Source: Microthyrium microscopicum
Taxonomy: Eukaryota
Length of the DNA stretch: 64,000 nucleotides
Assembly: GCA_010405405.1 (NCBI GenBank)
Contig: MU004231.1
Coordinates: 1,166,153-1,230,152, forward strand
Direction: 5' to 3'
Shown here: positions 34,301-57,313 of the stretch, piece after piece
Numbering within the stretch: position 1 is the stretch's first letter
Layout: every line of letters begins with the position of its first letter
Notes under the pieces: generated by a model
Databases searched by the model: none
What the model was told of the DNA's origin: nothing
What the model saw: the letters and a program-made list of their open reading frames with translations, nothing else
Translations under genes and position numbers: made by a program

Positions 34301-34863
34301 TGTTGCCGTTCGATAACGTGGGGACAAATGTCGATCTTATCTTGGGTGTAAGCAGATTTAAGCTTTTCAGTCTTACTTCGTCTATGAGGTTGCAGAGAAC
34401 GTGAGTCGACTTGAAAAGCTGTTCTTGATCATATCAAAAGTAAACTCTTTTCATCGTCAAAGTCTCAAACATTTTATTCATTTCCCCCTATGATCTTTGG
34501 CATCTTCTGCTTCTAGAGCTATTTGGAAAGTATTGGCCTAGTAAATACTCTAGCCTTTACACGCATAGCAATGACTCGGGCATCAAGTCACGAGTTTGGA
34601 ACATACTTCGTCTCGACTTCAAGTGCAGGTTTTCTATAACTTAATGTGCGGCTAATTGAAACTGTTATTAAGTGTCTTTGACATAGTTCGTGCTTGTAAG
34701 TATCTTCATTCAGAAGATACCTAGCAAAGACGCAGTCAAACTTATGGCATCTCGAGCGCTGGCACAATCTCGAGAATACCACATTATTCACCATACCTTA
34801 CCAACCCTTCCAGCCCAATCCATACCACCACTAACCCACTAACCCAACAATACCATCATCCCA

Positions 34864-35970
34864 TCAAGAACTCTCTCCCATCTTCCCTTGCCCTTTCCCC
34901 TTCCCACCACCACCTCTCTTCGCCGCCCTAGCAATCTTCCGTCCCTGCGCATACGTCGAAAGCGCCTCACCCGGTGACTTGCGACTCCAGCCCACCGGAT
35001 GATTATTCCGCGGATACGGCCGCTCCACAATCCCTCCCAAACCACTTCCTAGACGCTGCGCCCCTTGCAGCTGCGCAGAATCCTACTCCGCAACAACAGC
35101 ATGAGTCTCAACATATGCGCGATTCAACCGCTGGCCATTGGGCGCGATTTTGTAGTGGGAGAGGCGGATGTGCTCCATCATGCTGAGGAAGCCTTTTACC
35201 CAGTTGAAGGTTTTGCCGGCTTTGCGGCCGTTGCCATCTATGAAGCGTGGTCAGTGACGGATGGGAGGGTGGGAAGGAATGAAGGAAGGGCGTGTGTGAA
35301 AGGGGGATGGGGGGGTGGGGGTGGTGAGCTTACGGCATACTGGGCAGCGGAGCTCGACGATTTTGCCGGTTTCGAGCTCGACTAGGGATTTGTAGTAGCG
35401 GAGCTTGGTGTTGTGGCATTTTTGCCAGATGATGGGTTCTTCTGGGGCGGGTTCTGGGGTGGGTTCTGGGGCGGCGGCGACTGCTGGGTGCTCTATAGGG
35501 ATGCTTGGGGAGGTTTGGGGGAGGAATGGATTCAGAGCGTGGTAAGTCTTGGGGGTATACGTACCAGCGGTCGCGTATGATGTTGGCGCGTATGGAGTAT
35601 TGCTAAGGTAAGAAAGATCACTGTAATCTGGGACCAAGCCGGTGGTGTAAGAAGCAGTGGGATCATAAAAGCCCCCAAAATTAGTGAGAGGGGACGATAT
35701 CTGGTTTGGCCCCATAGCATAATCTGTCGCGTTGAATGGTCCAGGAAACATATTGACTTGAGCATTAGGAAAATGAAAAGCGTCGTTGAATGGCACCGCA
35801 ATATCTGGCACCGCTGGCTGGAAATTAAAAGGCATCGCGTTTTCAACAGTTTGTTGACTCTGCGTCTCTTCCATTCTGGGGTCAAAAACATGACCATATG
35901 GAATGCCCAGTCTCGCTACTGTCAATCGCACACGCTCCAGTCGACTCCATTCTTCTTCCGTAGGGTCCAT
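34864..35970 (-). CDS. Family A paralog A1: zinc-finger-like protein with in-frame TAG (35085-35083) and 72-codon extension
   Basis: WQKCHNTKLRYYKSLVELETGKIVELRCPVC|HGNGRKAGKTFNWVKGFLSMMEHIRLSH...NRAYVETHAVVAE*DSAQ...IVERPYPRNNHPVGWSRKS. Intron 35333-35238. Confidence 0.8.
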
Positions 35971-36850
35971 GAAAGAAGCGGTTATCAATCGTACGACTCG
36001 GAGCGGTTTACAGAATTTGACCAGTCAAAGAGAGGAAACGAGATATCTCGCTTCGCCGTCAACTTGACATGCGCAGCGAAGCGGTATCAGACACATGCTG
36101 TCGATATGAAGCAGACTTATGAATGGATATCTGCAGTGTTGAGATATGGAGCGATGCAGGCATTACTTTAACACAGAAGAACTTTTGGTTCATGAGAACG
36201 TGTTGGCTTTGCTCCATGTTACTTGGAGGTTGTGCTCTACTAACGCTTTACCAAGCACGCTCAATATAACCGCTGACTCTTGAACCACAGGAGGGACCGG
36301 TTTACACGGGGTGCAAAGATCACGTAGGCGGATGTCGTAATGCTGTGTGAGGTTCAAGCATACTTGATCTGCCAAACAGCGAGAAGCACATTCATTAGCT
36401 AGAGTAAGATGCACCGGAGAGGAGAAGGCCAATGTCAATATTATCATGATCTTGTATTGTGTAAAGGCTAAGATGAGGCTTCCTTATACAGCACAACGAC
36501 AAGGAGCCTCTCGACAAACCTGGCAGTGGAAAGTCGAACCCGATTACACAACATCGAATCATTCTTTCAATTTTAGTCGGACCCAAGCAATTCGGCAGTA
36601 TGAAACATGCATTATACGCGTTTGGCATCCCGAGTCGGGAAGGCAAACTCCAAAATCACACTGCCGAATTCTTCCATCATTAGTTCTTTCAAACGCAAGC
36701 AATTTAGCAGATACCTTCCCATAGAGGTAAGAGTATCTCAACAACCATGAGATTCTGACATGTCCATAGCATACATTTCCATCGCAGCAACAATACCAAC
36801 AGGGGTGTTGCCAGTGCTACAGATCGAATCGAGCGGTACAAGTTGCCAGT

Positions 36851-38518
36851 TCAAGCAGCACGACGGCGCTTCTGTGGCTTTGAGTTCGCTGCTTCAGCAG
36901 GACGATGGCGCTTCTTTGCATCAGATGCGGCCGCTTCGGCAGCAGCTCTGGCCGCTTCTTCGGCAGCAAGCTTCTTCTTCTTGCGCATCGAGGCGGACCG
37001 ATTAGATGACTTGCGATCCCAGTCGTCTGGATGCTTGTTCTTGGGGAAAGAACGCTCAGTGATGGTACGTGGATGGGATGGATCCTAGTCATCCTTTTCC
37101 GCATGCTCCATCAGCCAACCGTAGTCCACTTTCTTTCCAATTTGGTGTCCCGCATGCACAACTCCTTCATGTGATAGCTGAACATGAAGTAGAAGCCCTT
37201 TGAAGCCTTGGACGCAGGCGAAAGACGCGTTGCCGATTTGGCGACCATTGCCTTCTATATTCGGGGTCAGTTCATGGTGTTGGATGAATCAAGGAAGGGC
37301 AGACATCAACTTACTGCAGATGGGACACTGAATCTCAATGATTCGGCCATCCTTTAGCTGCACTCTACAGCCTTGGAACTTGAGCTTAGTGGTACTGCAT
37401 TCCTTCCAGGTGGACATGGCCAAAGAATGACCTGTCATGACACCAACCACTTTGGCTTGCTCGAGTGATGGGACAAATGGGCTAGTCAGTGAAGTGTGCT
37501 CATTGTTGTTGGAGGCATCTAAATCGCCCGGAGAGGTGATTTGGTCTTCGTCAAAAGAGGAAGCGATGTCAGCTTCGTCATGGGCCACATCGTTATCTTC
37601 ACCAGAATAAGCATCGCCATGGCTAGAAGCTGTAGCTTTCTTTCCCTTCCAAGCACGTGCCATTCGCTGCACCTGTTGCTTCAAAACTCGTTAGTCGAAT
37701 AGATCCGAAACAAGTTAAAGAAAGTTACCTCGAGCACGTCGAAACGCTGACGGAAGTCGTTGTCGGGAGAGGCGGTTTCAAGGCTGTTATCAGAAGGTTC
37801 TTGAGATGTGCTAGGAGCAGGAGCGTGATCCTGATCAGCAGAAGTGAGTTTAACTTCGTTTAATTGTTTCTCCAATGCTTGTTAGCTGGGTAACTTCAAA
37901 AATATTTGAGAGAGACATACCTGCTGTATCTCGACGAGCTGAAGCAGTTCAGCGCGGGAAAGTCCTGCTGGGTTACGTTCCTGAAGCGGAATAGAAGATA
38001 TAAGTCGCGCAGTAGCATTGGTGTCCATCACATCAACAACGGGCAGTGGTGCTTCAGCTCCTAGTGCGGCATTGCCGGCTTGCGCAGGCATGGCTGTTGG
38101 AGAGTATCCGCTGGAAGTGGGCGCAAATAGTTCTTGGCTCGGATAGTGCTGGATGCGGGACTGGAAGTCCTGGATACCAGAAATGATGTCTTGGACTACT
38201 GCTTGGTCGGTCATAGGACTAAGGATTGGAGATTGTAAATGTTGCGACTCGAATTGGGGTGGTGGAAAAATGCTCTCAAATTCAGGTGTCGAGCCCGAGA
38301 TTTGCGTACCAGGATCCTGGTGAAGATTGTCGTTATCGGTGAGATCGGTACTGTAACCGTTCCAGTAAGGCGGATTGTAGTCCACGTCCTGGGACTCGTG
38401 CTGAAGGAGGTAATTAGCAAGCTGGCTTTTAGCAGAGGTACGTAGCAGAGGTAGATCTTGTGGAAATGTTCTCGTTAAAGCTAGCTGACAGCATTGAGAC
38501 TTTACTTACAAAGGACAT
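36851..38518 (-). CDS. Family A paralog A2, multi-exon, in-frame TAG (37087-37085) and 77-codon extension
   Basis: WKECSTTKLKFQGCRVQLKDGRIIEIQCPIC|KGNGRQIG...GFKGLLLHVQLSH...VDYGWLMEHAEKDD*DPSHPRTITERSFPKNKHPDDWDRKS...RKKKK. The 5' exon structure (start MSF at 38518) is tentative. Confidence 0.75.
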
Positions 38519-39478
38519 GGCGCCGACGAACAATCTGCGAGGCGTCTCTAACGAAGTGGTCGAGATGGTGTTTTGAGGTTTGGTGAAGATCTCGAACACC
38601 ACCGGCAGAGGAGAAGACTTTATAGTACGCGGTGGCAGCGCGTGGATTAGCGCGGAAGCAGTGGAGGAAGGTACGGCCACGAGGATCAACCTCTAAAGGC
38701 AAGAACACTGTAGTGCACCTACTCCAAAAGATTGACTAGCGGGCTGCTCTTTCCTCACGGGGCCACGGGCACACAGATCTATCGGGCTAAAGCAACACCC
38801 TTGCAATCCATGGTCAAACTGGGAGGCTCTATGCGAGATCAATGGCAAGATCAATCGAGGTTTTGGCAAGAAGCACCAATTCCGATCATGGCGATAACAT
38901 TGTTCTTCTGTCCCGTGAGCCATCATTCTATCCCTACAGAAAGAACTCAAAGTTGAGAGGAAAGTCCGGGTTTTATTGTGCGATGATATCACTTTTGGAT
39001 GGTAGGCTCTACTATCACTATGTTCCATATCAAAATAAAGACGTAACAAAGTCAAGCCCAATGGCGATAACTTGAACCTCCCGCCTCGTGAAAAAAAAAA
39101 TGCATTCTCGCGAGTGGTGGCTTTGGACTGACTTGACGCAAAAGAGATTGAAGGATCGAGGTTGGGAATGAGTGAAATCATCTTCGTCGGTAGAGCTATC
39201 AATATCCATTGGATCCGAATCAGGGTTGTTCTCAGTGAGTCTCTCACCCATAAGAGTATCACCATCGGGATCGACTGGCGGCACATTTGAATCTGGCTTC
39301 TTTTTTTTGACGGGCGTTGGCTTGGTGCGTCGCGGATCAAGAAGCCAATGGCAAAAGAACTTCATGAACTTTGATACTGTCTCTTCTTCGCCTGGTGCTG
39401 GATTCAACGGATCGACGTGAAGTTCGTTATCTTGCAACACAGCCCAGTCTGGCGCTCCATCGTTGCCCCGATGTTTCT

Positions 39479-39987
39479 TCACATCAGTGTTTGGGCTGTC
39501 GCCACAGGTGGACCTGCTGCAATGGGGCCATAGACTAAAGTTGGGAGAACAAAAGGAGGCCGTGTCGGTTGTTGCGCGATCGCAGCACGTTGTGCCTGTG
39601 TGAGAGTTCCTGCACTTGTGACGCCAGTATTGGGAGTGCCTGCGAGGTATGAACGATGGGCAATGGTCAGTGGAATCGCCGGACTCTATCGGGCATATTC
39701 CGAGTGTCGCATAACCCATGCCGGGTTTAGAGGACCTGCATAAGGACCTGCATTTGGTAGATGGCTGTGGTTTTTCCTGATATGGCTGGAGTCCTTTTAC
39801 TCCTTTAGTCGATTTGAAATGGCCTTCCATTCGGCCGTTACCACCTAGAGAGATTATGGTTAGATTCTATTGGAGGGAGGAAAGAGTGATATAGGACAGT
39901 ACTTACCACATATCGGGCATCGGAGTTCTGCTATGAGGCTTCGGTTGACTAGGGCCAAGATACCACAATTGTGTCAGATTCCCATAT
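39479..39987 (-). pseudogene. Family A paralog A3, 5'-truncated and frameshifted; retains the homologous TAG (39688-39686)
   Basis: IWESDT/fs/GILALVNRSLIAELRCPIC|GGNGRMEGHFKSTKGVKGLQ/fs/HIRKNH...NPAWVMRHSEYAR*SPAIPLTIAHRSYLAGTPN. Closest to A4. No upstream ORF. Confidence 0.75.
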
Positions 39988-41088
39988 TCAGACTAGACGT
40001 CGGTTTCATTCAAGTAAAGATATATATAAGTTTCGACTGATAGTTTCATCGGTCACTGTGATATATATGAGATAACACGACAACACACATGAGCTCACTG
40101 ATTAATGTTTCAGATACTGTCGTGGTGAAATGCTTGTATTAAGTACTAGTTCGTCATGCCTCCAGAAAGACCAAACTTCAATATATAACGGTTGCTATAA
40201 TCTATCTGCGATTCTATTTGACATATAGTCCAAAGGACGGCTCTTGTGCGGGAACAGATATGAAATAGAAGTAAGCAAATACGTTAAAGCCTCTAAGGTG
40301 ACATCTTGGCTCATACAAGAGACAATCCGCTTGCAGTAGTACTCTACCAACAAGCTGCGCTTGTGATCGCAGACAAATTGGATCAGGCAAGCCATAGAAT
40401 TTGATTTCGTCGAACCTCAGTACAATTGCGGCCAGAGCTCTGAAGCATTAACCTATTCCTCCAGATACCTACTGTAATAGACAAGATTATTGTATTAGCA
40501 GAAGATTCTTTGATCTTAATTTCTCAGATATCTAGCAAACTGAAGGTTGATTAGACAGGTTTTCAGAGCATCAGGTGAGCAGCTCAGCTATGTGTGTTAC
40601 TCTCGTGATGCCTGATCCGCATCCAACAGAGCTCATTTCGTAGTCACGAGAGTAAATAGTCCCTGTTGGAAAGGACTGTCGCGATCAACTGTGCTTTGAC
40701 TTGCATTTGCGCTGGTTTTTGCCGCAGAACAGCAATGACATATGTTTTCATTTAGATGAGAGGACAGAGATGACACATATGAGAAACATGGCGACTCGGT
40801 TTATTGTACATATTTCATATTCTGACTATTTTACAATAGTAATGGGGACTATCTAATGATGCAGAGCTTTTGGTTTGTGAAGATACAGCACATGCTCGTC
40901 TTCAAAGAAGCAATAACAAAAACAAGGATTGACCAATGGACTCATGAGCAAGCTTCAAACACTTTTCTTCCCTCAACAACGCCTCTTGGATGACATCGCC
41001 AACGCCTCTGACCCTATGTATTAACTTCTCGTCAATTCAATGTCAATCTGGACGACAGCTCTTATGGTCTCGCTCCTGAGAGTCCTGA

Positions 41089-42497
41089 CTATCCACTAGT
41101 AGCGGGACCTCCATGTGTGAGGAGTCGTCCATACGGTCCATTCGCTGCTTGCGCCATTGAGGGTCCAGCTGTCACCAAAGTTCCCGCAGCTGGGCCTGCT
41201 GCAGTGCTAGCTGGCAGCGGCGCTGGAGCGAGTGGAGGTTGTGCAGGCTGTGATATGGCAGGTGGCCCTGCTAGAGTTGAAGCTGGCGCGATAGGTGGTG
41301 CCGGAACAATAGCAGGCAGCTGTCGCTGTGCCGGGCCTTGTTGGCGAGGCGGCACCAAGCCAGCAGCTCGTGCAGCAGCAAGCCGAGCAGCAGTGAATGA
41401 TCTTCCAGTTGTCGGTCCATGGTTGGGGGTGCCCACCGCGTATGCAATTTGGGGTATGTTCAATGGATTCACCGGATTCTATCTATGGTGGATCGCATTT
41501 CTCAACACCCACTGTGGATTGAAGATCCCTCCAAAGGTGGGAACACCGTGCTTCTTGCGAATGTGCTCCTGGAGACCTATCACCCCTTTGGTCCACTTGA
41601 ATCGTGGCCCAACTGGGCCTTGGCCGTTGCAATCTAGAGATCATGTTAGAGTCTGCTTGAAGAATCGACAGCTGTTAATGGAGAGGAGCACTTACGGCAT
41701 ATTGGGCATCGAAGCTCTGCTATCTCACCTTGGTCAACCGGGACTAGGATTCCGTGGTAGTAGTATCCAGATGCGGTGTCTGACTGCCACTGCATCGCAG
41801 TTCCGTTGACCGTTGCGGTCAGCATGGGGCCGTATGGTACTATCACCGATGGGTGAAAAGGCCGTCGTCTATTGGGGCGTCGAGAGCCAGGAGCTGTTTG
41901 GGTAGGAGCAACTTGATGGGGAGCAGCAGCGTGACGACCAGAACGTCGAACACCACCTGCCGTAGCATTTGGCGCTTGAGGATTTGGCACTTGAGGATTT
42001 GGCACTTGAGCGACTGGTATATGAGCGACTGGTATATGAACGACTGGTACTTGAGTATTTGGTACTTGAACGATTGGCAGCTGAATGTTTGGCACTTGAG
42101 CAGGTGTCAGTTGAGGCTGTGCTTGATTTAGACCAGTAGCAGTAGGATCCATGACTGGTGGATGTTGCACGATTGTATCCGATAATATGTATAAACGTTG
42201 GTTTCGATTAGGAAGGGGGTGCGGACCAATGATAGGAAGGCCACTTGGGTGCGTATAAGTGTTGTCTGGAGAGAGCGGCCGTGGCTGTTCCATCGGAAGG
42301 AGTCCGTAGTTCACACGGTAATTAACAGGACTGTCTTCTTGCTCTTTGGCCTGACCATCGTGTTGCTCAGTAGCCCAGTCATCGTCCGATTTAGTGGCCT
42401 GACTATCGTTTTGAGGATCGTCGTTTCCCGAAGAGTCGTGTGGAGGGAATAGCACAGAGTCGCGTTCCATAGCGGAAGTCCAGAATGGCCCGGTCAT
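41089..42497 (-). CDS. Family A paralog A4, in-frame TAG (41481-41479) and 129-codon Pro/Ala-rich extension
   Basis: WQSDTASGYYYHGILVPVDQGEIAELRCPIC|HCNGQG...FKWTKGVIGLQEHIRKKH...NPQWVLRNAIHHR*NPVNPLNIPQIAYAVGTPN. Intron 41695-41634. Confidence 0.8.
41968..42101 (-). repeat. Coding minisatellite, 15-bp unit, about 9 copies, in A4
   Basis: Plus-strand units such as tttggcacttgagga and actggtatatgagcg encode QVPNI-QLPIV-QVPNT-QVPVV-HIPVA-HIPVA-QVPNP-QVPNP-QAPNA. Confidence 0.85.
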
Positions 42498-43250
42498 GGT
42501 TTCGGTTACCAGCCAAGGCAATGGGAGAGCTGGCGTGGATTTGGTAAGAAGTGATAGTTTTGAGAAGCGGCCGCGCAAAGAACGACGAACTGTGACACTG
42601 ATGAAGTATCGTACTTTGAGAACTCTTTTGATTTATAGAAGAAGTTATAGAACTGGGCGTGAAGGAAAAGTCAAGAACTTGGTTGGGAATCGGGATGGTG
42701 TGGTAGTAAGAGGTGTAGAGAATGGAGTATAAAATCAGGCTTGGGGCAACCAACGGATTGGATTGGACGGAGCTAGCGAGGTCGAATCGAGGTATTGACG
42801 AGGTGAGCTCACCTCGAGAATGTCGGGACATGTACTAAGCCAGAATCAGGTAGCGATTGCTCCATGAAAATGACAATATCAGATATACGCCAACATTAAA
42901 GATCCCAAAGCAAGAATTTGACAGTATAGAGTTGGAGATACAAGCTGTATTGATATTAACGGCTATAAACAAGGTTTCCGAGACACCGAACAGAAGCATG
43001 TCCGCTTTTATAGTCATAACAGCCATGACAATTCCAGAAGTCTGCTGTACTGTAATAATAACTGTTTGGACAAACAAAGGTCGAACCGCGAGGACAACAT
43101 CACAAAGTCCTCGTTTCAAATCATGAATAATCCTGCAGTATGACCATCCTGGAATTGTCTATTTCCGTAACAAGAAGTAGCATTTTCAAAGTCGTCCTGC
43201 CCATAATTGTCAAACCTCACACCTTCACCAATCACCGATGTGCTCAACCG

Positions 43251-44523
43251 CTATTCGATAATGATACCAGAAACCGTTCCTGCCGTGGAATCCAAGTGTG
43301 CTCGAGCAGCTTCTGCTCGTGCTCGCTCTGTCTTCTTGTGTTCCTTGCGCCGAGTGGTTTGTGACTGTGAACGGAGAGTACTTTTCCGATCCAATCCTTT
43401 GGTGTTGAGATTCTTGAGAAAAGGACGGATTGTAATGTCGCGCGGAGCTGCTGGATCCTAGCCAGCACAAGTTGCAACACGTATCAGCCACTCGTAATTA
43501 AATCGCACCTTCTGATTCGGGTAGTGGGATAGGCGCATGTGCTCATAGATTCCCTTTAGGCCTTTAGACCATTTGTCCCGACCTTTGTGGCGGCCGTTAC
43601 CGGCTAGATCACAAGTCAGTTGAAGTTACCGTGGTTAGAAATAGCTTTGGAAACTCACAGCAGATTGGGCATTTGATTTCGATGATGCTGAGATCTTTCA
43701 GCTCTACCAAGTTGTTCGAATAGCGCAATTGGGTGGTAGAGCACCGCTCCCATGTCGATGGGTCGGTACTCTCGGGCGGTACAGTATTCCCAGTCTCTGC
43801 CTGTTTCGGTAATGGATTTGGAAGATCTTTGATTTCTCTCACCTCCGGGCGCTGTGTAGCGTCCTGAGAAGACATAGCCTGTGAATTTGCCAAGCTTGAC
43901 AAAGGTCCAAGAGGATGGGCCGCATTATTAGTTTCGGCAGGGTGACCTCCAGATTGAGACGCAATTGAAACAAAGGGAGAAGTTGTCGGGTGAACAGCAG
44001 GAGCGATGCTGATAGGAGGCATTGTCCCTAAACGTCGACCTGAATTACGACGCGAGGAAGCTGATGTCAAGAGAGCATTATTGGGAGGAACTGGGGGTGG
44101 TGGCATCGAACCATGTTCGGCTTGAGCAGTTACTTGATGGGTAAAACCAGTATCGTCGTTCGAATATTGTAGTGTGGATTGCACATTTGGAGCATAGGCG
44201 TTGTTGATGATATAGTGAGGTAGAGAGCTCATCTGAGGATGCGTAGAAGTGTGAGGGTTTCCAGTCGAGAGAGTGCCGGATGCTGCGCCGTCATCTCGAG
44301 CAACCGCACCGGAGGGCAGAGCTGAAGCTTGCCTATCTCGATGGTTGGTGTTCTCTTGGGCGTTGCGATCTGTGAGGAACGAGGTCACCATGGCATCGAT
44401 GGCATTCTGGTCTAGAGAGACACCGCCATTTGGAGCTGGGCGTAGAAGGTAATGGTAGTTGTGAAGTGTCCCTATTACCAGTCGCACGCATTCCTCATGA
44501 GATAAAGCGCGATGGCCTGACAT
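43251..44523 (-). CDS. Family A paralog A5, in-frame TAG (43460-43458) and 68-codon extension
   Basis: WERCSTTQLRYSNNLVELKDLSIIEIKCPIC|SGNGRHKGRDKWSKGLKGIYEHMRLSH...NYEWLIRVATCAG*DPAAPRDITIRPFLKNLNTKGLDRKSTLRS. Intron 43658-43604. Confidence 0.82.
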
Positions 44524-46458
44524 GATGATTTTGGGAAACAATGTGATCGACGAATATGTTGTTTGTAGTATAGAAACAGTGAAGGAGAGTCTTTGGTAAC
44601 GGGGAGAAGGGTGCAGTAAAAAGTAGAGTTGAAGAAAGCGAGGTGAAAGAGATGTTGAGGGAATTTTATAAGAAAGACTCGGAGGATGAACTCGGGGTTA
44701 GACTAGCCAGGGTATTGTTGTAATGCCATTGGACTGCACTTGGAGGTGGTATGGCCTGAACCTATGGAGCGTCTAAGGAGGTGGTATAACTTGGGCCTAT
44801 AAAGAGGTGCTAGAGCGTGAAAGTACCAGCAGTGTCTTCGCAAGACTAGACTCCCAATGTGTCTTGAAATCCTCAATCTCGACTCGCGTTGACTTAAGAA
44901 CTATAGATACAATGCTTGACGGCTCTAAATAGAAACCTGGACTCTATTGCCATGCTCAGACTTGTTGTTTGACTGCTAACAACCTTGGTAATCGATTCGC
45001 CAAGGAATGTAGAGCCATTCTGACTATCGTTTTGGTATAGAAAAGCCTTGAAAGTTCTATCAAGTCTTTAATCTGTCACTCAAATCCAATTCACGTTGTT
45101 GATAGTTGGTAACGTTTCATCGTAGTTCGCCACAGGAGTTTTCAAATACCAACAAGATTGAACACTGATCGTCATTATACTGCTATCTGGCATTTGTAAG
45201 AGATGTTGAGGGCATCGCAGCTAGAAGGATAAGCGCACATTACATATCGCAGTATTGATGAAATCGTCTGGTAGAATGGTGGCACCATTTACTGCTCATT
45301 CGAAAAGTTGGACTGCTGTCGTATAGATTAATGGAAGTTGCCAACGTGCAACTCGCAGCCTTTAGAGGCCCTGCAAAACAGTGGCTTTGTGGAATATTCG
45401 AGCGAGAGGTATCGTTTTGAACTGACAGTGACCCGATCGGACCTGGAAAAGACTTTTATGACGGGTGTGCCAAAAATGCGGTTCAGTCAAATCAGAAGCG
45501 TGAGCTGCTGTACTCGGTGCAGCAAGCACATGAGGCGGTAGTCCTTGAGAATCAAGTATCGAGTCCTGATCAGCAAAAGCCGTGGCCTTAAAGTGCGCTT
45601 CATCGATGCGTGTTGGCGCCGTTCCTGACGGCACCGAGCTGCTTCCTTTCCGATTCCAGACATTTTTCAACCGTATTTGGATACTCACGCCAATGATTGG
45701 CTGTATAAAATGTAGACTTGTGCTGTTACAGAGCTGAGGGTCCATTTGGCGCCAGTAATATAAGAATAGTCTCCTTTTATCGTGAAAGGGGACACTGTAA
45801 TGCCATCATACCTACCTAAGTAGGTACTTAAGTAGGTGATCTGAGGAAGATATACGCATTTAGTAAGATTGATGGTGGCAGGCCGCCTCTTCGTCAATGA
45901 AGATATCCAAAACAGCATATATGTTATCGAGTTACAATGCGACGAGTTTCTCCTGCGATGAGGGGGGTTTAAAGATTGTTGAGGGTATGCAACACAAATA
46001 TCAATTCGGTTTCGCGGCCCCTGAGCCAGGACTCGCCATGTTGGCGTTGATACTCGAATTAGAGGACTAGGAGTCGCAAGATCGAAGACACTTTAAGAAA
46101 TGTGCCAGAGAGAACAGACATTTCTCGTCCGTCAAAGATGCCCGAAAGCGGAAGTAGAGAACAATTCTTCTGTAATAATACAATAGGACCATCGCTCGAT
46201 ATCAAAATCAATAACAAGAATTCGGATTGTTATGGCATAGTAGTCATACTAGTCCCGATATCTAAAAGCCTCAATGGACGTCCTCACACTAGCCATAATA
46301 AAATCAATCCGAAGCATCGCGCTGCTTGGCAGTCATGCATATTTCCATCGTCACAAATACCAGCCGCAAGGCATGGCTAAACCCCTGATTGCACGGATAT
46401 TTTCGGTCCATGGCGACTGGACCCAGTCAATAGAAATCACCGTCACAGTGCTCAAGGT

Positions 46459-47697
46459 TTAGGAGGCAGGTGCCGCCTGAGCTCGCACTGCCTTCTTCCG
46501 ATTCCGCTGAGCCTTAGAACGCAGCGTGGAAGTACGGTCTACTCCACGTGTGTTGGTGTTCTTTGGATATGGTCGCTTAATGATGTCCTGAGCAGTCGCT
46601 GGGTTCTAAACAGCAACAGCAGCACCGCATCTAAGAAGCCACGCATAGTCGATTCGGACTTTTCGGCCATGGATCTGGTAATGTGACATTCGGACATGCT
46701 CTGCGAGGCCCTTGACACCTTGAGCCCAGTTCCATTGCCCGGTTTGTCGTCCGTTGCCGCCTAAAAGGTGTATTAGATCATGGCCAGGAAAATTTGGGCA
46801 TATGTACTTACCGCACAAGGGACAACTCAAGGCTTTGACGGAGCCATCTTTTAGCTGTACATAGTTGTTGAAGTGCCGCAATTGGGTTGCTGAACACACC
46901 TCCCAAGTTGATGGGTCAGGTACCATGACCTGCACTGTTAAGCCAATTGCTGCTTGTTCGGGTAGCTGTGCCGGAGTTTGTCGTATCACTGGAATGGAAG
47001 GAGCAGCGGCGCGATGGTGGACCCGCTGGTTTTGTGCAGTGCTTATTTGAGAGTTTGCGACGTTACCATTCACTACCAGGGTCGGAGCATTCGTGTTGGC
47101 TGGCAAGGCTGGGCTTGGTCCTGCAGGATGTGGGAGTGTGGCGCGTGGGTTGCGATCAATTGCCATAGAAGGCATCATCTGTCCAGAAGAGTGGTTGGAT
47201 GCTCCACCGTGAGCGAATATCTGAAAGGGCGGCAGTATCGTGGGCTGAAGGAACTGATCGAAGCTGTCGTCGCCTTCAGACGTAGCGAGATGTCCGATTA
47301 CAGAGGTAGTGTCCCAGTGCGATTGCGAGAATGGATGCTGCATATTGGGTGAAGCTGTCAATGTAGTCGACGGGATCTGATCCACTTGCGGGTGGCCGAA
47401 CGTAATGGTGTTATCGAGAACTGAATTGGGAGAAGGGTCAATCGTAGATGCGGTACTTCCTGGCGTGGCAGGTTTGAACTCCGCGGAGGGACCAGAAGAT
47501 CCTTGGCTGGATTTCTCATGTCGTTGGTGAATGAAATAGTCCACCATGTCGGCTATGGCATCCATGTTGTAGCTAAGGACACTCATTGACGGCTCAGTAT
47601 CATTGGGCATGACTGTAACCAATTGATTTGCGGAAACAAGCGTTAGGTGGACCAACTCCATGCATTCTTCACGAGACATGGGACGTGAATCCGCCAT
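46459..47697 (-). CDS. Family A paralog A6, in-frame TAG (46608-46606) and 48-codon extension
   Basis: WEVCSATQLRHFNNYVQLKDGSVKALSCPLC|GGNGRQTGQWNWAQGVKGLAEHVRMSH...DYAWLLRCGAAVAV*NPATAQDIIKRPYPKNTNTRGVDRTSTLRS. Intron 46811-46761. Confidence 0.82.
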
Positions 47698-47890
47698 CAG
47701 GAAGGGGGTGAGAGCTTTTGATGGAAATAGAATGGCTCGATAGGGTAGACGCGCAGTGATATGGAAGGTTGTTTGCAATAATGGATCGCTAGGTGAACAA
47801 AGAAGGGTTCTATGGGTTTAAAGGTGGAGAGAAGGTTGTTGTGAAGTGGAAAGGAAGAGGTTGTCGTAAGATGTACGCGAAAAAGTTGCT

Positions 47891-47974
47891 GTGAGATGTA
47901 GGAGAGACTCGGGCCAGGTTAGAATGGGGCCTTTTTGTTATGGCCTATAGGACGCATAAGGAGGTGTTATATAG
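47891..47974 (-). promoter_or_regulatory. Shared upstream module (copy before A6)
   Basis: Plus-strand gtgagatgtaggagagactcg...atggcctatag...taaggaggtg aligns with 50449-50537 and 52549-52631 and lies ~190 bp upstream of the ATG. Confidence 0.65.
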
Positions 47975-49027
47975 AATGAACGTTCAGGTGGTCTTTATTG
48001 TGGCGTTAACCCGTGAACCCGATGCTATTCCACAAAGCCGCAAATGTAATTGGCTATTGAGTGAAGAGTTCCTGTCTAAAAACAGATACATCTATCCGAC
48101 TTTCCCACTTTCAGGATCTACATCCCGGGTAGTTTATATGTTTATAAAAATCGTGGTTATTGCACATGTCGAAGGCAATGTAGGAAACCGCAGCGAGAGC
48201 AGCTACTAGAAGCGATCTATAGCCGCGAGCGGACCGAGTCAGTCAAATGACAGATCAAAAACTGCTTCTCTTGCCAGGAAGCTGTTTTTTGTCTAGAAAT
48301 CTACCTGAAACAAATCCTGTGTATGACAAGCCAAAGTAACCAACAGGAGATGCACTGTGCACTCTTTATACGGTGGAAAAACACCATGTGAAATAAATCA
48401 AATCGCAAGAACAGTGTTTGCATATTCTCATACTGCTGTCGTTGCTATCTAACAATATTCGGAAAACGACGTTGCAACTGTGCCGCCTCAGAGGTTGTCA
48501 AATACTCCGTAGTCCGTCTGCATATCCAGATGACTGCCAAATTCTGCCTCTTATTTTGTTTTCATATACCAAATAACCGGGCAAGCAGATTCTGACTACC
48601 CCCGGAACTTCATGGAGAGTCAAAAATAGAATTTTGATGGCGTAGAATTGCGTAAACGCGCAGTGATATATCTCAATTGGTGGAGCTCATCACTCCCATT
48701 CTACATATTTGCGCAAACTTGCGAGGCTTCGAATTTCTATCAGGCTAGGATTGCAGCTCATTATCGGATAACGTGAAATCAAACTGTATTGCTTCTGTCT
48801 CAAACCCATCATTGTAACCAGAACCACGCTCAACGTCCACAGCAAATACCTTCCTCTGGTATGGGTACCTGGCATATATTCAAGTAGGTCACTATGTATG
48901 GTAAAGGAATCCATCAATCTGACTGCGACATTTGGGCAATAATCTCCTTTATTTCTAACCATCAGTATGCACCATTGACTAATAGAATCCTTTCCAAACT
49001 CAGAAAGATCGCAAGTTTTAGTGGAGA

Positions 49028-49116
49028 TCACGACCATTTCATGAGGTGAAGTTGGAATAAAGATGGCGCTTGTGTCCGGCAGGGCAAAGCGGGTATGCGG
49101 GCCGGTCCCATCATTC
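49028..49116. repeat. Conserved ~88-bp non-coding element downstream of B1
   Basis: Close copy at 53457-53543; 3 mismatches in the first 45 nt. Confidence 0.85.
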
Positions 49117-49430
49117 TGGCGCAGGACCAATTGCAAGAAACTTGGGGAAGACCATTTAATAACATCTACTTCTCATCGAAACATGGTTGGAAATAATTGC
49201 TGCGTTCTGCGACACCAGGATTTGAGGCATATTAGGCTTCGATGCGGAGACAGCTGGGACTCGATTCAATCGTATTGTCGCAAGGCACGGCAATTTTTAT
49301 GTAACTTTTAGTAAGTCACTTGCTGGATGTTGGTAATTATACAGAACAAGCAGAGAAAAGCAATAATTTTCGTAAATCCGGCGCTATGCACGCGATTAAT
49401 TCTATTCATCATCATCCTCCTCCTGTTGTC

Positions 49431-50288
49431 CTATTTCTCCTGCTCCTCCTGTTCCTCCTTCCCTTGCTCTTCCGCAGCTACTGCTTGTGATGCGTTAGGC
49501 GCTGCAGCCGCTGGCGCATTGGAGCTGAGAGAAATGGCTAGACGTCTTCCAGCAGACACAGGAGTGGCGGTTGCAGCCGCAGGAACGCGAGCTGAACTGG
49601 CCGAGGCGGTCATAGGAGTTGCATGGATACCAGTCGAACTGCCAGGATTGGCGCTTGTATTTGCGGCTGTAATGATGTCCTCTATGGAGTCTGTTAGCAG
49701 TGCTGAAGTTTACGGATGTTCGAACTTACCCGCAAATCTGATGAGTACGCTGGGCTCATTGAACGGCTGAATCGCGTTTGCGACCTCACCCATTCGAATC
49801 AGCACTAATGCCAGATCCGGATAACGCTCAGCGACTATTGAGGGAGGAGTCGTACTCTCGACTAGAAGATGAAAGAGTACAGGCGACACTACATCCGCGC
49901 CTGCCGGGAGAGGACCATTCCAGTTGCCTCGCATGGAGTTTAGGTGTGCTTGCAGAGGCGGCAGACTATTGGCAACCATAGGGCGCACTTGTCGGCCATC
50001 GAAAATCGAAAGTGCCCGAGCCAGCATATCTAAGGTGGCGCTGAATTGGGCGTAGCCCTCCATCGGTGCAGATGTGCGGTTTTGATACCACAAACGAGCA
50101 ACAGGGCGCCAGTACGGCTGGCTCAGACCAGTCTATTCGCACATCAGTAGGAATGCTATAGTCACGCATTAGATGGGAAGGATTACCGGGCTGAAGAAGA
50201 GAACAGCGACGACTTCGCCTCTGTCCACCTGCTCGTTGAATTGAGCACACTGGGATTCAGACATCCAGCTCAGTGACATCTCGGCCAT
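49431..50288 (-). CDS. Family B paralog B1, unknown function, 3 exons
   Basis: MAEMSLSWMSESQCAQFNEQVDRGEVVAVLFFSP|...RPVARLWY...HLNSMRGNW...PAGADV...FHLLVEST.PPS.VA...LIRFA|...SAGRRLAISLS. Homologous to B2 with the same intron positions. Confidence 0.8.
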
Positions 50289-50448
50289 AGTTGCGTGCTG
50301 GGAATATCAGGCGCAGAAGTATTGAAAGCGGTTTACAGATGACGGTGTTGGTAAGAGATTCCTTGGAGGAGTAAGTGATGAGCGCGCAAAGGCGTGGTGA
50401 ATGAGAACGAAGAATTGAGCAAAGCAATTCCAGAAACCGGGAGTTGTT

Positions 50449-50537
50449 GTGAGTTGTAGAAGAAACTCGGGGCCACGCTAGCATGGGATCCTACTGCCAT
50501 GGCCTATAAGATGAATAAGGAGGTGGTATAGCATGGG
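50449..50537 (-). promoter_or_regulatory. Shared upstream module (copy before B1)
   Basis: gtgagttgtagaagaaactcg...tagcatggg...atggcctataag...taaggaggtggtatag, ~160 bp upstream of the B1 ATG. Confidence 0.65.
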
Positions 50538-51134
50538 CAAATGAAAAGCGTAACGAGGTAGCATAGCGTGGCAGTTCTAGCTGATCTTCATTTCTGTCAA
50601 TCGCATATTTTCTTCAGAAAGATTGCTTACACAATATACTGATGTAGAGGAATAGAGGCGGAAAGCATTATTGACAACATATCGCATTATGAGCAGCAAT
50701 GGTAGTAACACATCTATTAATCTACATACAGTTGGGTCCAACTTCCTGGCCATGTATTTCAGGACTCTTCGAGCAACTTTGAGAACAATTGATTGGAGCT
50801 AGGGTGAGCAGTATATATTGATATAGAAGAACTAAGCACTAAAAAAGCGGGTGCTTTTAAGGCTAAGGCTGAAACTAAATTGACAATTACAAAAGATATC
50901 GAGGACCCCGAACAATAACATCGCCACTTCCAACATTAAGACTTTGCGTATAGTAATAATAATCATAGAGAACAAGAGTGATGTTGGGGTAATGGGGCCA
51001 ATGGTGATGGTGATCTTTGGAAGCAACAGTAAGAATACCCTAATCCAACAACAAGAAGTTCCCGTCCCATGGGCCACATGTTCGGTAATCTGAGATCAGA
51101 CTTTCCAGAGATAGCTCTGTCGTTACCTACCCTC

Positions 51135-52345
51135 CTAATCGATGGTGGCACCGTCGAGTGCGTTCGTCACGTCGGAGGGGCGAAGTGCTTGTGACCGCAT
51201 TGCCGCCTTGAGTGACTTGCGCTCTTGGATTTGCGATTGAGACCGCAGGGTTGAGCGACGGTTCAGTCCGCGACTGTTTCGATTCTTGGGGTATGGACGT
51301 AGCGTAAGGTCTCGCGGTTCTGTTGGATCCTATACTCTCACAACCGCAACACGCATAAGCCATGCAGCATCGATTCTAACCTTCTGGTTCGGGAATTCTG
51401 AGAGTCGAATATGCTCCATCAATCCCTTGAGCCCCTGTACCCAATTGACCTTCTTGCTAGTATGGCGACCGTTTCCACCTAATACAACTATCAGATTTCT
51501 GAAGCAGTGTAGATATTTAAAAGAGACTTACCACAAATGGGACATTGAATCTCTCGGATAGTGCCATCCGGCATTTGTATGAGACTGTTGGAGAAACGCA
51601 GTTTGAACGATGAACAAGTATCCCATGTCGCAGTATCGACGTTCTCTGGTGAAACATGTTCACCAACTACTGCTTGTTCAGGCAGTTGAGTTGGGAGTGC
51701 ATTGATCAAGCGCAGTTGAGAGCGCGTAGTTTGTGATCCGGAAGAAGTTGCCTCTCGGTTGTGGGGACGGTGTCGTCGGGCCATCGAGCGAGGGGTGATG
51801 TTCTGGAATGATAGTGGGCCAACAGCTGTACTCGATGCAGCAAGCGTATTGTAGGGTAGCCCTTGGAATTGGGGGATGGACATCTGGTCAGCAGGAGCGG
51901 TGTCCATGAATGAAGCGGTAGTGATGTCTGTCATAGCGTTCAATGATTGCATTGAGCTGCTTGCGGTTGCAATTCTAGAAACTGCTTCGGAAGGCATTCG
52001 AGAACTGTTGCTGACATTGGGCTGCGAAGATTGGAAAGTTTGGTCGTTATAGAGCTGAAGCCCCATTTGAGGCTGTTCCACAGGGATATAGTCTTTTGCG
52101 ATTCCCGTGTAGGATGCGGCAATGCTATCTTGACTAGCCGGGTCTAGAGAAGGCGCGCGTACTTCGGAGGTTTCGCGATGCAATACAGTCTCTTCGTCAA
52201 TGAAGGCATCCACCATATTGTATATGTTGGCGAAGTGTGGCTCGAGTCCACTTTCTCCTTCGAAGAGAAGTTGCTGAGGATGGAAGAGAGTTCGTAGCAC
52301 CAGTTGCACGTAAGTGTCGCGGACCATTGATCGAGGAGTCGCCAT
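51135..52345 (-). CDS. Family A paralog A7, in-frame TAG (51332-51330) and 64-codon extension
   Basis: WDTCSSFKLRFSNSLIQMPDGTIREIQCPIC|GGNGRHTSKKVNWVQGLKGLMEHIRLSE...DAAWLMRVAVVRV*DPTEPRDLTLRPYPKNRNSRGLNRRSTLRS. Intron 51531-51479. Confidence 0.82.
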
Positions 52346-52548
52346 ATCGGCGTCTGTATTGGCGACGGAAGGCGAGTTGGGAGGACTGTGGAACCAAAGA
52401 GATGACGAAAAGGCGAAGAAGACGACTTAACCTTCTGGGTTGACAAGGAGAGGAGGATACAAGGCAAAGAGGATGGCCAAAGGGGATGAGCAAAGAAGAT
52501 AGGCACAGAGGATGGACTTGGTGGGTGTGAGGTTGAGGGAAGATTGTT

Positions 52549-52631
52549 GTGAGATGTAGGCGAGACTCGACGTGGCGATAGCATGGGTTCTGGTTGCTAT
52601 GGCCTTCGGAATGATTGAGGTGCAGTATAGG
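52549..52631 (-). promoter_or_regulatory. Shared upstream module (copy before A7)
   Basis: gtgagatgtaggcgagactcg...tagcatggg...atggcctt...gaggtg, ~200 bp upstream of the ATG. Confidence 0.6.
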
Positions 52632-53456
52632 TCGAATGCTTAGGTGACTTTAAATGCTGTACTAACCGCTTATATTCCATCTTGCCGCAGATTCTCTTGG
52701 CCATCGATGGTAAGAGCTATATAGAAACGACTTTCTCTCTTTGATGAGCTCACTATTCTATTGAAATTGTAGAGCGCGATCCCTTTAGAGTTGAAAACTC
52801 CAGTCTTAATGAGCAACGCCGCGTGAGCATTTCAGGAGCGTATTGTGGTGTGAATCTAAAGAAACATCGCAATAATGACAAGGAAAATGCATTCCGCGTA
52901 CAGGCTGTGAAAGCTCATCGAAGCTTAAGCCGGTAAATGTCCTAGAGTCCAGAAAACCTTTTCGTTCTAAGCTTATTCTTGAGATTCATGTCCAACCACA
53001 TGTTGGAGTATGTGGCGAGGCTACCGATTTGGGACACATGCAGAACTAGGCAAAAATGAAATTAGAACACAATTTTAATTCCATGTATTTTATAGGGGTC
53101 CGCCAGATAAAGTACACAGAGGGAAGTGGTGATTATGGGTTGTTATGCCCCTGAAATTCACAATATATTCTGTCTCTCCAAAAATCACAGATTACAGCGC
53201 ATCATATGATACTAAATAATTCAGCTACCTGCTTTTGTGTGCAAATCATTTATGATCTAGCCAATTCCAATACACACACCTGGCGTAATTTAAAGGCAGA
53301 GTGAAACATCAAATGGTTACTTGGATTGGCAATAAAAGCACCGTTGACAAACAAAGTAATTCAAATGATAGGATTTCTTCTCGTCGAAAGGAGTCGTGTT
53401 TCGGAAGTCTTTTTTATCCCTTTCAAAATCTTGATGAGTAGAAATATTGTCAGATT

Positions 53457-54865: not shown

Positions 54866-55630
54866 GATTGTACCTTGTAGCAGTCGAACGTGTATAGAAG
54901 ACGGTGCAAGCAGGAGTCAAGACCTGATTCTTGCGGTGGCGAAAGGTGGTTGGTGATATAGAAAGTTGAAGGTGTAGGAAGAGGCAGAGGGATATTAAAC
55001 ACAGTGTGCTACTGCGGCATCATGTCATCTGAACCGTGCTCTTACCGACAGGAAAGAGCGACCGGATAGAGCTATAAGAAAGAGCGAATAAGCTCTCGTG
55101 GGAGGTGGAAGGGTGTTGAATTATAGGAAAGAGCGCTTAGGGTATCGTGAAGTCAGGAACAATGAAGCCACCATGTTTAAAAGCGTAGGTTTTCAAGGCA
55201 AGAACCACTAATGCATGTCGCTCAAGGGAAAACGCTACAGAGCGCAGCGACCTTTACTGGGCCTAATAAGGTCTCCACGTGGAGGGAAAGATAGACCAAG
55301 ATGCGTGGTAATTTATCAACGTTGCCATAGAGGTCAGTCGTATAATTTTTGTGGAAAGTACAAAGGGCATGGATTGGGGGTTAGTTTCCAAGCGATTCCA
55401 AGCAGTTCCAAGCTGAGAGAATCGAGTTGATGGTTGACAGAAAGAACCGTATACATTCCAACACTCCTAGCTCTTGACGAAGTGAAAATAACCAGGCGTC
55501 TTGTCGTCGCTTATATACCGAGTATTTTGGACAGCCACTATATAGCAATGGGCTCAAACAAACTTTGTCAAATGCAATGTATTCATTTTATCATTGGGCT
55601 AAGTCATGAGAAAGAGGCAGCTGATGCTAT

Positions 55631-57313
55631 CTACACAATTCTGTAGTTGTCTGCCACGGAGCGAACCTCTTTGGAGAAAACGACGTCTGCGTTCGTGCTG
55701 ATAGCTGAGACATTTGATACCTGATATTTGTTAGCATTCGCTTGGAAAGGACATGTGAGATACTTACATCAACATCAACATATGGTTTGCTCTTTGAGAA
55801 TTGAACCGCCATTGGGAAAAATTCGGACTCGTCAGAAGCTTGAGCCTCAAACTCGAAAGAGCCGCTGGCATTTTCATCATCCACAGAACCAATGGTCCAA
55901 TCTATGCTATCACCAGAAACCTCATACACAGCATCAAAGCTTGATACTGCGGGTTCACTAGTTTGGTAGGGGATGGAGACAAGAACATCCTTCAAAGGAT
56001 CACTACCACCCCATTCGTACTCGACCGTAATGTTCCACGTGTTTCCACCCGCATCGTTCACCCAAACATTGAATGTGATGGGCGTATCCTCGACGTTTTC
56101 GGCTTTCGGTGATAACTTCCATCGCATGACGCCAATTGACTGGTTTGCTGGGAAACCCTGACCAGCTTGTGCGATCTGAATGACTTTTGAATTCTTGAAG
56201 AGAGCTTTGTCAACTTTCGGGTGCGCCATCAACTGGGCCCCATGACTATCACCCACTGCAAGATTGAGTTTGACTTGAGTAAGTTTTGGATCCGTGATGC
56301 GAAGATGTAGATCACCCTTGACTTCGAAAGATTCCAGGGAGCCTTCTCTGCTAACCTTGGCTGATATGGTCTCTGCTATGGTGATATGTACCGGCTCACG
56401 GTCAAAGGTTGATGAAGAGGCGAGAGGTGTTGCGGCAGCCGTTGGTGTAGTTGCTTGAATTGGAGGCGGTGAGAGTTCGGCTTCAGGTCCAAGTTCTCCA
56501 CGGATTTGTTCGAATGCGTTTGTTGTTTTGGACTTTTTGCCCAGTTGCATACCTTTTCCGCGCACTGGTACCGACCTTGACTTTTGTTCCGATTTATAGC
56601 TGTCGTAGGTATCCGGTACAGATTGTTGCGCCGCAGGAGTGTACGTTGGATAGTTTGGTGCCCGGGGAGCCATTCCACGACCAGATCTTGCCATTTCCTT
56701 CCGTTGCATTTCCAATTGTTTTGCCTTGCGTTTTCGTTCCTCGCTGGCTTCGAGTTCCTTGTTCTAAGAGGAAATGTTAGTGGCCATCAACAATACAGCA
56801 AACAAGGTCCATACTCTTGCGATGATTTCTTGGATTCGTTCCTCGTGGCTCTCCATATCCAAAAAGGTCTTGATTTGACTCAGGGTCAAGTTTTCCCGGT
56901 AGCCCAATGTAACCAATTCATCAAATGCGCTTAGCAACTCAAACGAGTGTCTAAGAATCTCTCTTTCGTCCAAGGACTTGCAAATTGTGGAGACGACTTG
57001 CGCGAAGAGGTGTAACGAATCGATGTCTTGGAGGATATTGGATTGACGGTTGGTAATTAGGACCATATAGAGCTCATCTAATGGCTGGTATACGAAGCGG
57101 ACATTGTCTTGTTCGACAGTTGTATGCTGGCTTCCAGAGGCGGCCAACTTGGGAAAAGACGCGAGCAGGCCTTCGATTCGTGACTTTTGCATCTCCCGGA
57201 ATTGTCTTGACAGAACAGCTTTTCCGCCTCGGGTGCATATCGAAGCTGCGAGTACAACCTAGCTCAGAGGTGAGTTTCTTGACACGAATGTTAGATCGAG
57301 AATGGCGTACCAT
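55631..57313 (-). CDS. RET2: Coatomer subunit delta (delta-COP), 4 exons
   Basis: M|VVLAASICTRGGKAVLSRQFREM...RIEGLLASFPKL...QHTTVEQDNVRFVYQPLDELY...SNILQDI...MESHEERIQEII, then a C-terminal mu-homology domain. Introns approx. 57310-57259, 56814-56764, 55767-55721. Confidence 0.97.

Follow-up and report, generated by a model that had tools for sequence, protein, structure and literature searches.

A window of 64,000 nucleotides (nt) of nuclear DNA from the filamentous ascomycete Microthyrium microscopicum (Dothideomycetes, order Microthyriales; GenBank assembly GCA_010405405.1, contig MU004231.1, positions 1,166,153 to 1,230,152) contains a tandem family of genes, here called A1 to A7, in which every copy carries a TAG stop codon at the same place inside a conserved protein block. 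This observation is real and far stronger than chance. Judging from the features of the sequence, we consider correction of UAG to UGG by adenosine-to-inosine (A-to-I) editing of the messenger RNA (mRNA) to be, on balance, the best reading of the shared stop. Positions given below are those of the window, and all members of the family lie on its minus strand.

The shared TAG and the protein sequence around it

An earlier note on this DNA had placed the TAG in seven diverged paralogs, and its first bases lie exactly where they were claimed to be, at 35085, 37087, 39688, 41481, 43460, 46608 and 51332 in A1 to A7. The codon is the tenth past a conserved tryptophan (a tyrosine in A1) and the eleventh in A6, and the peptides that follow the stop read as they had been quoted. 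The contexts are likewise borne out, with TAG-GAT in A1, A2, A5 and A7, TAG-AGT in A3, TAG-AAT in A4 and TAG-AAC in A6. After the TAG the frame stays open for 72, 77, 68, 129, 68, 48 and 64 codons in A1 to A7, which matches the range of 48 to 129 given before, and the TAG is found in the last fifth to third of the intact frames, in A6 about 12% from the end. The internal stop is never TAA or TGA, whereas the terminal stops of the same genes vary (TGA, TGA, TGA, TAG, TAG, TAA and TAG from A1 to A7, that is, three TGA, three TAG and one TAA). The protein alignment of the seven sequences has 102 columns, of which 2 are invariant, the TAG column among them, and T, A and G represent 3 of the 4 invariant columns in an ungapped DNA alignment of 31 nt.

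Since stops followed by an open frame are by no means rare in this window, the case rests on conservation. There are 91 pairs of open reading frames (ORFs) parted by a single stop, and in A2 to A5 and A7 other frames also run long past the TAG, so that ORF length was set aside as a weak argument. Synonymous sites are saturated between the copies (proportion of synonymous differences, pS, 0.63-0.9). For the 38 codons past the TAG in A5, A6 and A7, the proportion of nonsynonymous differences (pN) is 0.26-0.35 and pN/pS is 0.40-0.45, comparable to the pN/pS of 0.37-0.40 in exon 2 before the TAG of the same copies; a check of the dN/dS type (nonsynonymous against synonymous substitution), which had been proposed for the codons after the TAG, thus gives a non-neutral result. 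Differences after the TAG, counted at first, second and third codon positions, amount to 29/24/63 among A5 to A7, to 73/57/127 when A2 is added, and to 32/35/56 for A1 against four others. For A3 against A4 they are 14/17/17, with no excess at third positions, as expected if A3 is decaying. The sense frame 0 after the TAG reaches a BLOSUM62 sum of 501 with 0 stops, compared with 256 and 2 stops for the antisense 'shadow' frame, which ranks highest among the five others, and antisense coding is thereby ruled out as the origin of the periodicity.

Upstream of the stop, all seven copies preserve about 17 codons at the protein level (VRIDxAWLxR and variants), and translation therefore reaches the TAG. 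As had been claimed, in the six intact copies the TAG interrupts a sequence that evolves as protein on both sides and in one frame, and it is close to certain that some way past it exists in these copies. The extension behaves as ancestral protein and not as a former untranslated region, since it is conserved and starts inside a conserved block. It ends in a basic tail, for which nuclear import or DNA binding would be a guess from composition.

Relatives outside the cluster point to the residue that the TAG may have replaced. A HMMER profile of the seven copies, run against 1.84 billion representative proteins, gave five matches, four of which are models of this cluster; the sole outside match, P0005 (E 6.9e-4), has three repeats of the finger-like unit that precedes the TAG. 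In the hhalign alignment the TAG column falls on a tryptophan of P0005 ('...WQWLVQECTRW-TEHPVVDI...'; probability 75%, E 2.4e-5), and P0006, which is 65% identical to P0005, keeps both this tryptophan and the block that follows it. Homologs with tryptophan at the TAG position, for which a search had been suggested, are thus represented at the protein level by P0005 and P0006. For Fusarium, PMC10776026 reports that edited TAGs derive mainly from TGG. A word-indexed homolog search with A6 returned only its own public model and one with P0005 only P0006 and the fragment P0007, and none of the 136 pattern matches of a metagenome scan with A5 to A7 was a relative. An AlphaFold2 model of P0005, built on three sequences, was unusable (mean predicted local distance difference test score 31.5). 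A search of the ESM Atlas with P0003, the public model of A5, gave AHC1-like and Rua1-type finger leads (best score 0.85, template modelling score at most 0.40), which were not used.

A predicted hairpin around the TAG

When 30 nt on either side were folded, the same size as in PMC9600606, the A of the TAG was placed inside a hairpin loop of the minimum free energy (MFE) structure in all seven copies, a feature not seen by the earlier note. Among other TAGs, the A lies in a loop in 45 of 167 on the minus strand of the cluster, in 219 of 814 on the minus strand of the window and in 283 of 935 on its plus strand (about 27-30%), and placement in a loop in seven of seven copies would be expected by chance with a probability of about 1e-4 if the copies were independent. 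Windows of 43 nt centred on the TAG have a mean MFE of -12.5 kcal/mol (z -1.79), compared with -6.2 kcal/mol (z -0.08) for 310 control windows from the same genes, and a mean as low as that of the TAG windows was not obtained in any of 20000 draws of seven controls. According to PMC9600606, more than 62% of edited sites are found in predicted hairpin loops.

The predicted hairpins, all on the minus strand, differ in their details. In A1 (35072..35094, A at 35084) the stem has 7 base pairs (bp), with an MFE of -16.4 kcal/mol per 43 nt and a z of -2.9. A2 (37074..37096, A at 37086) has a 5-bp stem and a 9-nt loop, and in both A3 (39675..39697, A at 39687) and A4 (41468..41490, A at 41480) the stem consists of 3+4 bp. 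The hairpin of A5 (43447..43469, A at 43459) combines a 6-bp stem with the 7-nt loop CUAGGAU, that of A6 (46595..46617, A at 46607) a 7-bp stem with a 9-nt loop, and in A7 (51319..51341, A at 51331) an 8-bp outer stem reaches roughly from 51312 to 51349. The letters of the stems vary by copy (UGCUGG/CCAGCA in A5, GUUGCUG/CAGCGAC in A6, GCGGAGU/AUUCUGC in A1). In A5 the predicted geometry equals that of the anticodon arm of a transfer RNA (tRNA), with the A third in the loop after a U, as in U33-A34, and with a purine at 37; Tad2/Tad3 naturally act on the anticodon arm, and PMC11169179 and PMC11156358 note this resemblance for fungal editing sites.

For an inner helix of six pairs (7-nt loop, A third), 73.8% of cells are paired, compared with 29-45% when the helix is slid along the alignment, four pairs are changed on both sides, and 1 of 500 shuffles reaches the observed pairing and 2 of 500 the covariation, in a register that was picked after the result for a helix of ten pairs, given below, was known and that is somewhat favoured by this choice. 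A role of the hairpin should precede translation, because a ribosome decoding the stop would melt the hairpin that holds it in its loop. A scan of positions 34000-53000 against Rfam gave no match. A covariance model of the hairpin, run over the window, recovered the seven sites and one further candidate at 49387-49417 (19.3 bits), which was rejected as an out-of-frame GAT repeat that does not fold.

As the earlier note had stated, the A of the TAG is preceded by U at -1 and followed by purines at +1 and +3 in all seven copies, and the letter at +1 is G in every case. Fusarium sites, as described in PMC9600606, prefer C or U at -2, U at -1, A or G at +1, G at +2 and A or G at +3 and +4, and the same source ranks -1, +1 and +3 as the most important positions.

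Proposed editing and its alternatives

We favour A-to-I editing because it accounts jointly for the restriction to TAG, the tryptophan in outside relatives and the letters at -1, +1 and +3, and because it also explains the position in a loop whose stems differ between copies, the copies A1, A3 and A4 that have no usable intron, and the missing readthrough context. In the proposed sequence of events, an ancestral tryptophan codon (TGG) behind the finger would have given way to a genomic TAG in every copy, kept in the loop of a 5-8-bp hairpin, the A being preceded by U and having purines at +1 and +3. An mRNA that escapes editing would yield a protein that stops at the TAG. If an adenosine deaminase converted the middle A to inosine, UAG would become UIG and be read as tryptophan, and the ribosome would continue for 48-129 codons, adding a conserved segment D-P-x-x-P-R-D-I-x-x-R-P-Y-P-K-N and the basic tail. 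The family would in this way be switched between a short and a long form post-transcriptionally, by stage or stress. Its products are small, largely disordered proteins with one atypical C2H2-like finger, and the family is lineage-specific. A wider proposal, that a Dothideomycete possesses a site-specific A-to-I system which recognizes anticodon-arm-like hairpins (UAG, 7-9-nt loop, 5-8-bp stem), with one activity switching an entire tandem family whose stop is older than its expansion, is put forward more tentatively.

Several points weigh against editing. RNA from the same species was available as one assembly of contigs, which covers A1 and A2 and next to nothing of A3 to A7. A joint from 35237 to 35334 in one of these contigs confirms the A1 intron at 35238-35333, and the same contig is unbroken over 34700-35237, across the TAG, with no splice there. 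The dominant A1 RNA of that sample keeps the genomic letters at the TAG in these contigs, from which rare variants are dropped, and it fits a conditional or low-level edit and equally no edit. In the flanking sequence, letters described in PMC9600606 as depleted at Fusarium editing sites occur at +4 of the A (T or C in all seven copies), at -2 (A or G in four of seven) and at +2 (A in three of seven). A helix of ten pairs symmetric about the TAG has 64% of its cells paired, compared with 30-47% when slid, and it is matched by 32 of 500 shuffles in pairing and by 15 of 500 in covariation score; RNAalifold recovers the same helix unaided, at a consensus energy of only -0.78 kcal/mol and with an unfavourable covariation term. 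A hairpin in fixed register is thus moderately supported by these predictions. The evidence for tryptophan comes from one distant relative family. In addition, an intron that ends at the TAG and keeps the frame must start with a GT codon, and an in-frame GT is present in A2, A5, A6 and A7, at 45, 51, 54 and 51 nt before the end of the TAG.

The taxonomic distribution of editing is a further point of this kind. By the account of PMC11156358, transcriptome-wide A-to-I mRNA editing in fungi has been recorded from Sordariomycetes and one Pezizomycete, and was not found in Aspergillus nidulans or Botrytis cinerea. The interaction of Ame1 with Tad3 that enables editing arose in Sordariomycetes according to PMC11087585, so that editing in a Dothideomycete would have to be achieved in a different way. 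The literature searched contained no report of A-to-I mRNA editing for Dothideomycetes, and among the paper titles listed for Microthyrium microscopicum none concerned editing. The interpretation offered by the earlier note is supported in part: the coding on both sides of the stop, the letter context, the loop and the tryptophan of the relatives speak for editing, the A1 RNA has the genomic letters, and the analogy to the ZAO/OLD system, discussed below, fails.

Among the alternatives, programmed translational readthrough, by which a near-cognate tRNA would read the UAG in a fraction of ribosomes and leave the RNA unchanged, is unlikely. Known cases (viral UAG-CARYYA; UGA-CUA in peroxisomal isoforms of fungi and animals) likewise produce a short form and one with a C-terminal extension, termination at UAG is leaky in many eukaryotes, and the in-frame protein selection on the extension would follow from any mechanism that gets past the stop. 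The contexts CARYYA and CUAG promote readthrough, and a purine at +4 of the stop favours termination. Here the next codons are GAT, AGT, AAT or AAC, which place a purine at this position in seven of seven copies, and the known stimulating 3' contexts are absent from all seven, as had been stated. The structure, moreover, encloses the stop, where a stimulatory one would lie 5-10 nt downstream, and should be melted at decoding. Readthrough would not insert tryptophan, the residue of the outside relatives, and it leaves the absence of TGA and TAA unexplained. A tRNA scan of the window found none, and there is therefore no suppressor nearby.

An alternative in-frame intron of 45-54 nt, which would extend from a conserved Lys|Val codon boundary to the TAG and be removed only sometimes, is improbable too. 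Its removal would join the finger to D-P-x-x-P-R and its retention would end the protein, the TAG serving as YAG acceptor and stop alike. The GT codons of A2, A5, A6 and A7 lie at this boundary, a matching CTRAY branch is present in A2 and A5 and in no other copy (as CTGAT, placed 26 nt before the 3' end), the intron has been adopted in the public models of A5 and A7, and FgBUD14 of Fusarium is a precedent in which editing and alternative splicing of a stop-bearing intron coexist (PMC11156358). However, all seven copies show protein-level conservation of the codons that would make up this intron. As donors it would have GTGGAC (A2), GTGCGA (A5), GTCCGA (A6) and GTTAGA (A7), in contrast to the GT[AG]NG donor, accompanied by a CTRAY branch, of all 10 well-supported introns in the window (the seven first introns of the family, two antisense introns and the in-frame intron of a coatomer-like gene). 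A1, A3 and A4 lack a usable donor: A1 offers GTAAAA at 117 nt and others at 30 nt or less, A3 a single one at 30 nt, and A4 has no intron ending at the TAG with canonical donor or branch. No more than one copy, A5 (51 nt), comes close to combining a canonical donor with a CTRAY branch and a minimum length of some 45 nt. The A1 contig, spliced at the first intron, is unbroken at the TAG, and the A1 extension is protein-conserved nevertheless. The hairpin, finally, would be left without a role.

Use of the TAG as a 3' acceptor had been named by the earlier note as an observation that would refute editing; such use is built into the public models of A5 and A7, is unlikely in A1, A3 and A4, and may occur in A2 and A5. 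Splicing does not account for A1, and it may serve as an additional route in A5 and perhaps in A2. A junction from the donor of the first intron to the TAG was rejected, as a phase-1 donor combined with a phase-0 acceptor shifts the conserved frame. An ordinary contrast to the TAGs of the family is seen in the coatomer/adaptor-like gene (55630-57258), whose in-frame intron of 57 nt (56764-56824, minus strand) ends in a TAG at 56764-56766 and has canonical signals (GTATGG...CTAAC...TTAG).

That the proteins simply end at the TAG and the similarity downstream is a relic or an untranslated-region element is very improbable: the public A6 model does end there, the A1 RNA has genomic letters at the TAG and long frames behind stops are common in the window (the 91 ORF pairs), but at synonymous saturation a relic would no longer align, the third-position excess, the pN/pS of about 0.4 and a stop-free frame 0 with by far the highest amino-acid similarity are left unaccounted for, and an element acting at the RNA level would not give a codon-periodic pattern.

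Correction by editing, which we prefer, has parallels in CHE1 of Fusarium graminearum and in zao-1 and zao-2 of Neurospora crassa, where, as reported in PMC11169179 and PMC12754623, a premature UAG is corrected by A-to-I editing, by OLD deaminases in Neurospora, and constitutive TGG alleles are harmful. As these sources describe them, CHE1 and ZAO share with the present family a conserved in-frame UAG in a predicted hairpin loop with U at -1, a protein of zinc-finger type, and a short form by default with a conditional long form, the latter shown there and proposed here. The errors of annotation reported for CHE1 are truncation at the UAG, small invented introns and the choice of a downstream methionine as start (PMC11169179); the first two recur here, and the third is not seen among the models of this cluster. 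In contrast to CHE1 and ZAO, with which the family could be compared by description only, no zf-C2H2 Pfam match exists here, the TAG follows a single finger-like motif where theirs precedes three fingers, and six to seven tandem paralogs share the stop, which there affects a single gene or a pair. PMC12754623 does not list Dothideomycetes, the class of the host, for OLD-ZAO. No OTT_1508-like or other deaminase family was detected in 61 translations scanned, a set in which short exons would be missed; it comprised 48 of the 74 ORFs of at least 110 amino acids and 13 pieces of the copies, and the other 26 long ORFs are mostly overlapping frames, some of them opposite or within the copies and others outside the cluster. 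The analogy to ZAO and OLD drawn by the earlier note therefore fails, on the missing zf-C2H2 match, the missing OTT_1508 deaminase among these 61 translations and the position of the stop behind the finger-like motif.

The restorative editing of the sexual stage of Sordariomycetes, described for 71 Fusarium genes such as PUK1 and AMD1 and attributed to Tad2-Tad3-Ame1 (PMC10776026, PMC11156358, PMC4817773), resembles the present case, as far as these sources describe it, in being restricted to UAG, in the likely ancestral codon TGG, in genes that look pseudogenic to annotation, and in the hairpin loop with U at -1, like U33-A34 of a tRNA. It differs in affecting single scattered genes, whereas here the stop is older than a tandem expansion and every copy has retained it through saturating divergence, and in its dependence on the Ame1-Tad3 interaction, which PMC11087585 presents as a Sordariomycete innovation. 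Stop-loss editing, as reported for DBF2 of F. graminearum (PMC13123824, PMC11156358), is similar in that editing would add a C-terminal extension; in contrast, the present extension begins inside a conserved block and shows protein-level conservation among old paralogs. Programmed readthrough, considered above, differs from the present family in its contexts, in the restriction to UAG, in the stop within a hairpin loop and in the tryptophan of the relatives.

If the wider proposal is true, fungal mRNA editing would go back much further in time, or would have been invented independently once more. If the TAG is edited, recoding would extend to a fungal class in which its presence is called undetermined by PMC11156358, and an editable stop that predates the expansion of a family and is retained in every paralog would be strong evidence that the stop is favoured over a sense codon. 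The signature from which such a case can be recognized in DNA alone would consist of an invariant TAG, codon-periodic conservation after it, a hairpin loop, and inconsistent gene models among paralogs.

The gene family, its public models and its surroundings

The family comprises six intact tandem genes, one relic (A3) and one fragment (45152-45925). Of the seven paralogs described before, all have the TAG, and A3 has to be classified as a decayed relic, which leaves six intact. A six-frame motif scan found CPxC at 35346, 37327, 39919, 41708, 43671, 46824 and 51544, in each case on the minus strand. In the architecture of the copies CPxC is followed by one base, a donor of the GTAAGT type and a phase-1 intron of 51-96 nt with a CTRAY branch; the product of exon 2 then reads GNGR...W..G.KGL.EH.R.SH...W, with histidines spaced H-x4-H, up to the internal TAG. 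The finger-like motif of the copies, CxxC...F-x5-L-x2-H-x4-H, is the sole basis for calling them zinc-finger-like. This part of the earlier description stands as a motif and finds no counterpart in a Pfam family: none of the seven copies reaches any curated cut-off, three sub-threshold rows (DUF1389, zf-WRNIP1_ubi and DUF444) are all that appears at E<=1, and a zf-C2H2 match sought in the copies at E<=1 was not found.

A1 occupies 34864..35970, with its first ATG at 35970, the intron confirmed by RNA and the TAG at 35083-35085; its extension covers 34867-35082 and ends with the TGA at 34864-34866. A2 extends over 36851..38214 (intron 37255-37314, TAG 37085-37087, extension 36854-37084 followed by the final TGA), with uncertain upstream exons and an approximate N-terminal limit. 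A4 is located at 41089..42497 (intron 41634-41695, TAG 41479-41481), A5 at 43251..44523 (intron 43604-43658, TAG 43458-43460), A6 at 46459..47697 (intron 46761-46811, TAG 46606-46608) and A7 at 51135..52345 (intron 51479-51531, TAG 51330-51332).

In the A3 relic (39479..39964; exon 2 from 39845, TAG 39686-39688), stops are present in exon 1 about 20 codons upstream of CPIC and a frame change in exon 2 near 39779-39791, and only 36 codons before the TAG share its frame; the 68 open codons after it run to a final TGA. After the frame change the other frame is open for 278 codons down to 39030 (39030-39866, minus strand). The lower part of this frame resembles charged coding sequence and could be part of a separate gene or represent upstream exons of A2. 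The degenerate eighth copy, between A5 and A6 (45152..45925, minus strand), retains N-terminal-like sequence only, the finger and the TAG region being absent; it shares 30% identity with residues 40-271 of the A7 model P0002 (tblastn, E 6.7e-14) and contains many stops and frame changes.

Four public proteins, each entered as 'hypothetical protein BT63DRAFT_... [Microthyrium microscopicum]', match exons of A4, A5, A6 and A7 exactly, and they treat the TAG in different ways. The A6 model (P0001) ends at the TAG. In the models of A7 (P0002) and A5 (P0003) the last 17 codons including the TAG are cut out as an intron of 51 nt, and in that of A4 (P0004) 37 codons including the TAG are skipped as an intron of 111 nt. 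No model with exon 2 of A1, A2 or A3 appeared in the full HMMER profile scan. The expectation that automated annotation would truncate these genes or call them pseudogenes was thus correct for the truncated A6, and in A4, A5 and A7 the error took the form of invented introns. At the TAG site, at least four genes have a public annotation that is wrong or doubtful. P0001 also omits 15 codons, VCSATQLRHFNNYVQ, at 46855-46899 on the minus strand, which are conserved as protein in the other copies; this gap is probably a second invented in-frame intron.

RNA contig cover over 35334-38983 includes two joints whose intron signals are canonical for the plus strand, at 35606-35766 (GTAAGA...TTAG) and 38435-38495 (GTACGT...CTGAC...TTGAG). 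The minus-strand intron of A2 is unspliced in that contig, in which sense and antisense RNA have been merged, and there seems to be a spliced antisense transcript across A2 and exon 1 of A1.

The other long ORFs of the window are genes of ordinary fungal types: an aspartyl protease, a TPMT-type methyltransferase, an OTU protease, a Zn2Cys6 factor and a coatomer-like adaptor subunit. The region 58001-62000 is very rich in AT, with a G+C fraction of 0.245-0.345 compared with about 0.47 elsewhere, and may be a relic of repeat-induced point mutation or another repeat. At 61315-63997 on the plus strand, two long ORFs in different frames each match one half of the Pfam family DUF2420; they represent one gene, interrupted near 62607-62627 by a frame change or a short intron.

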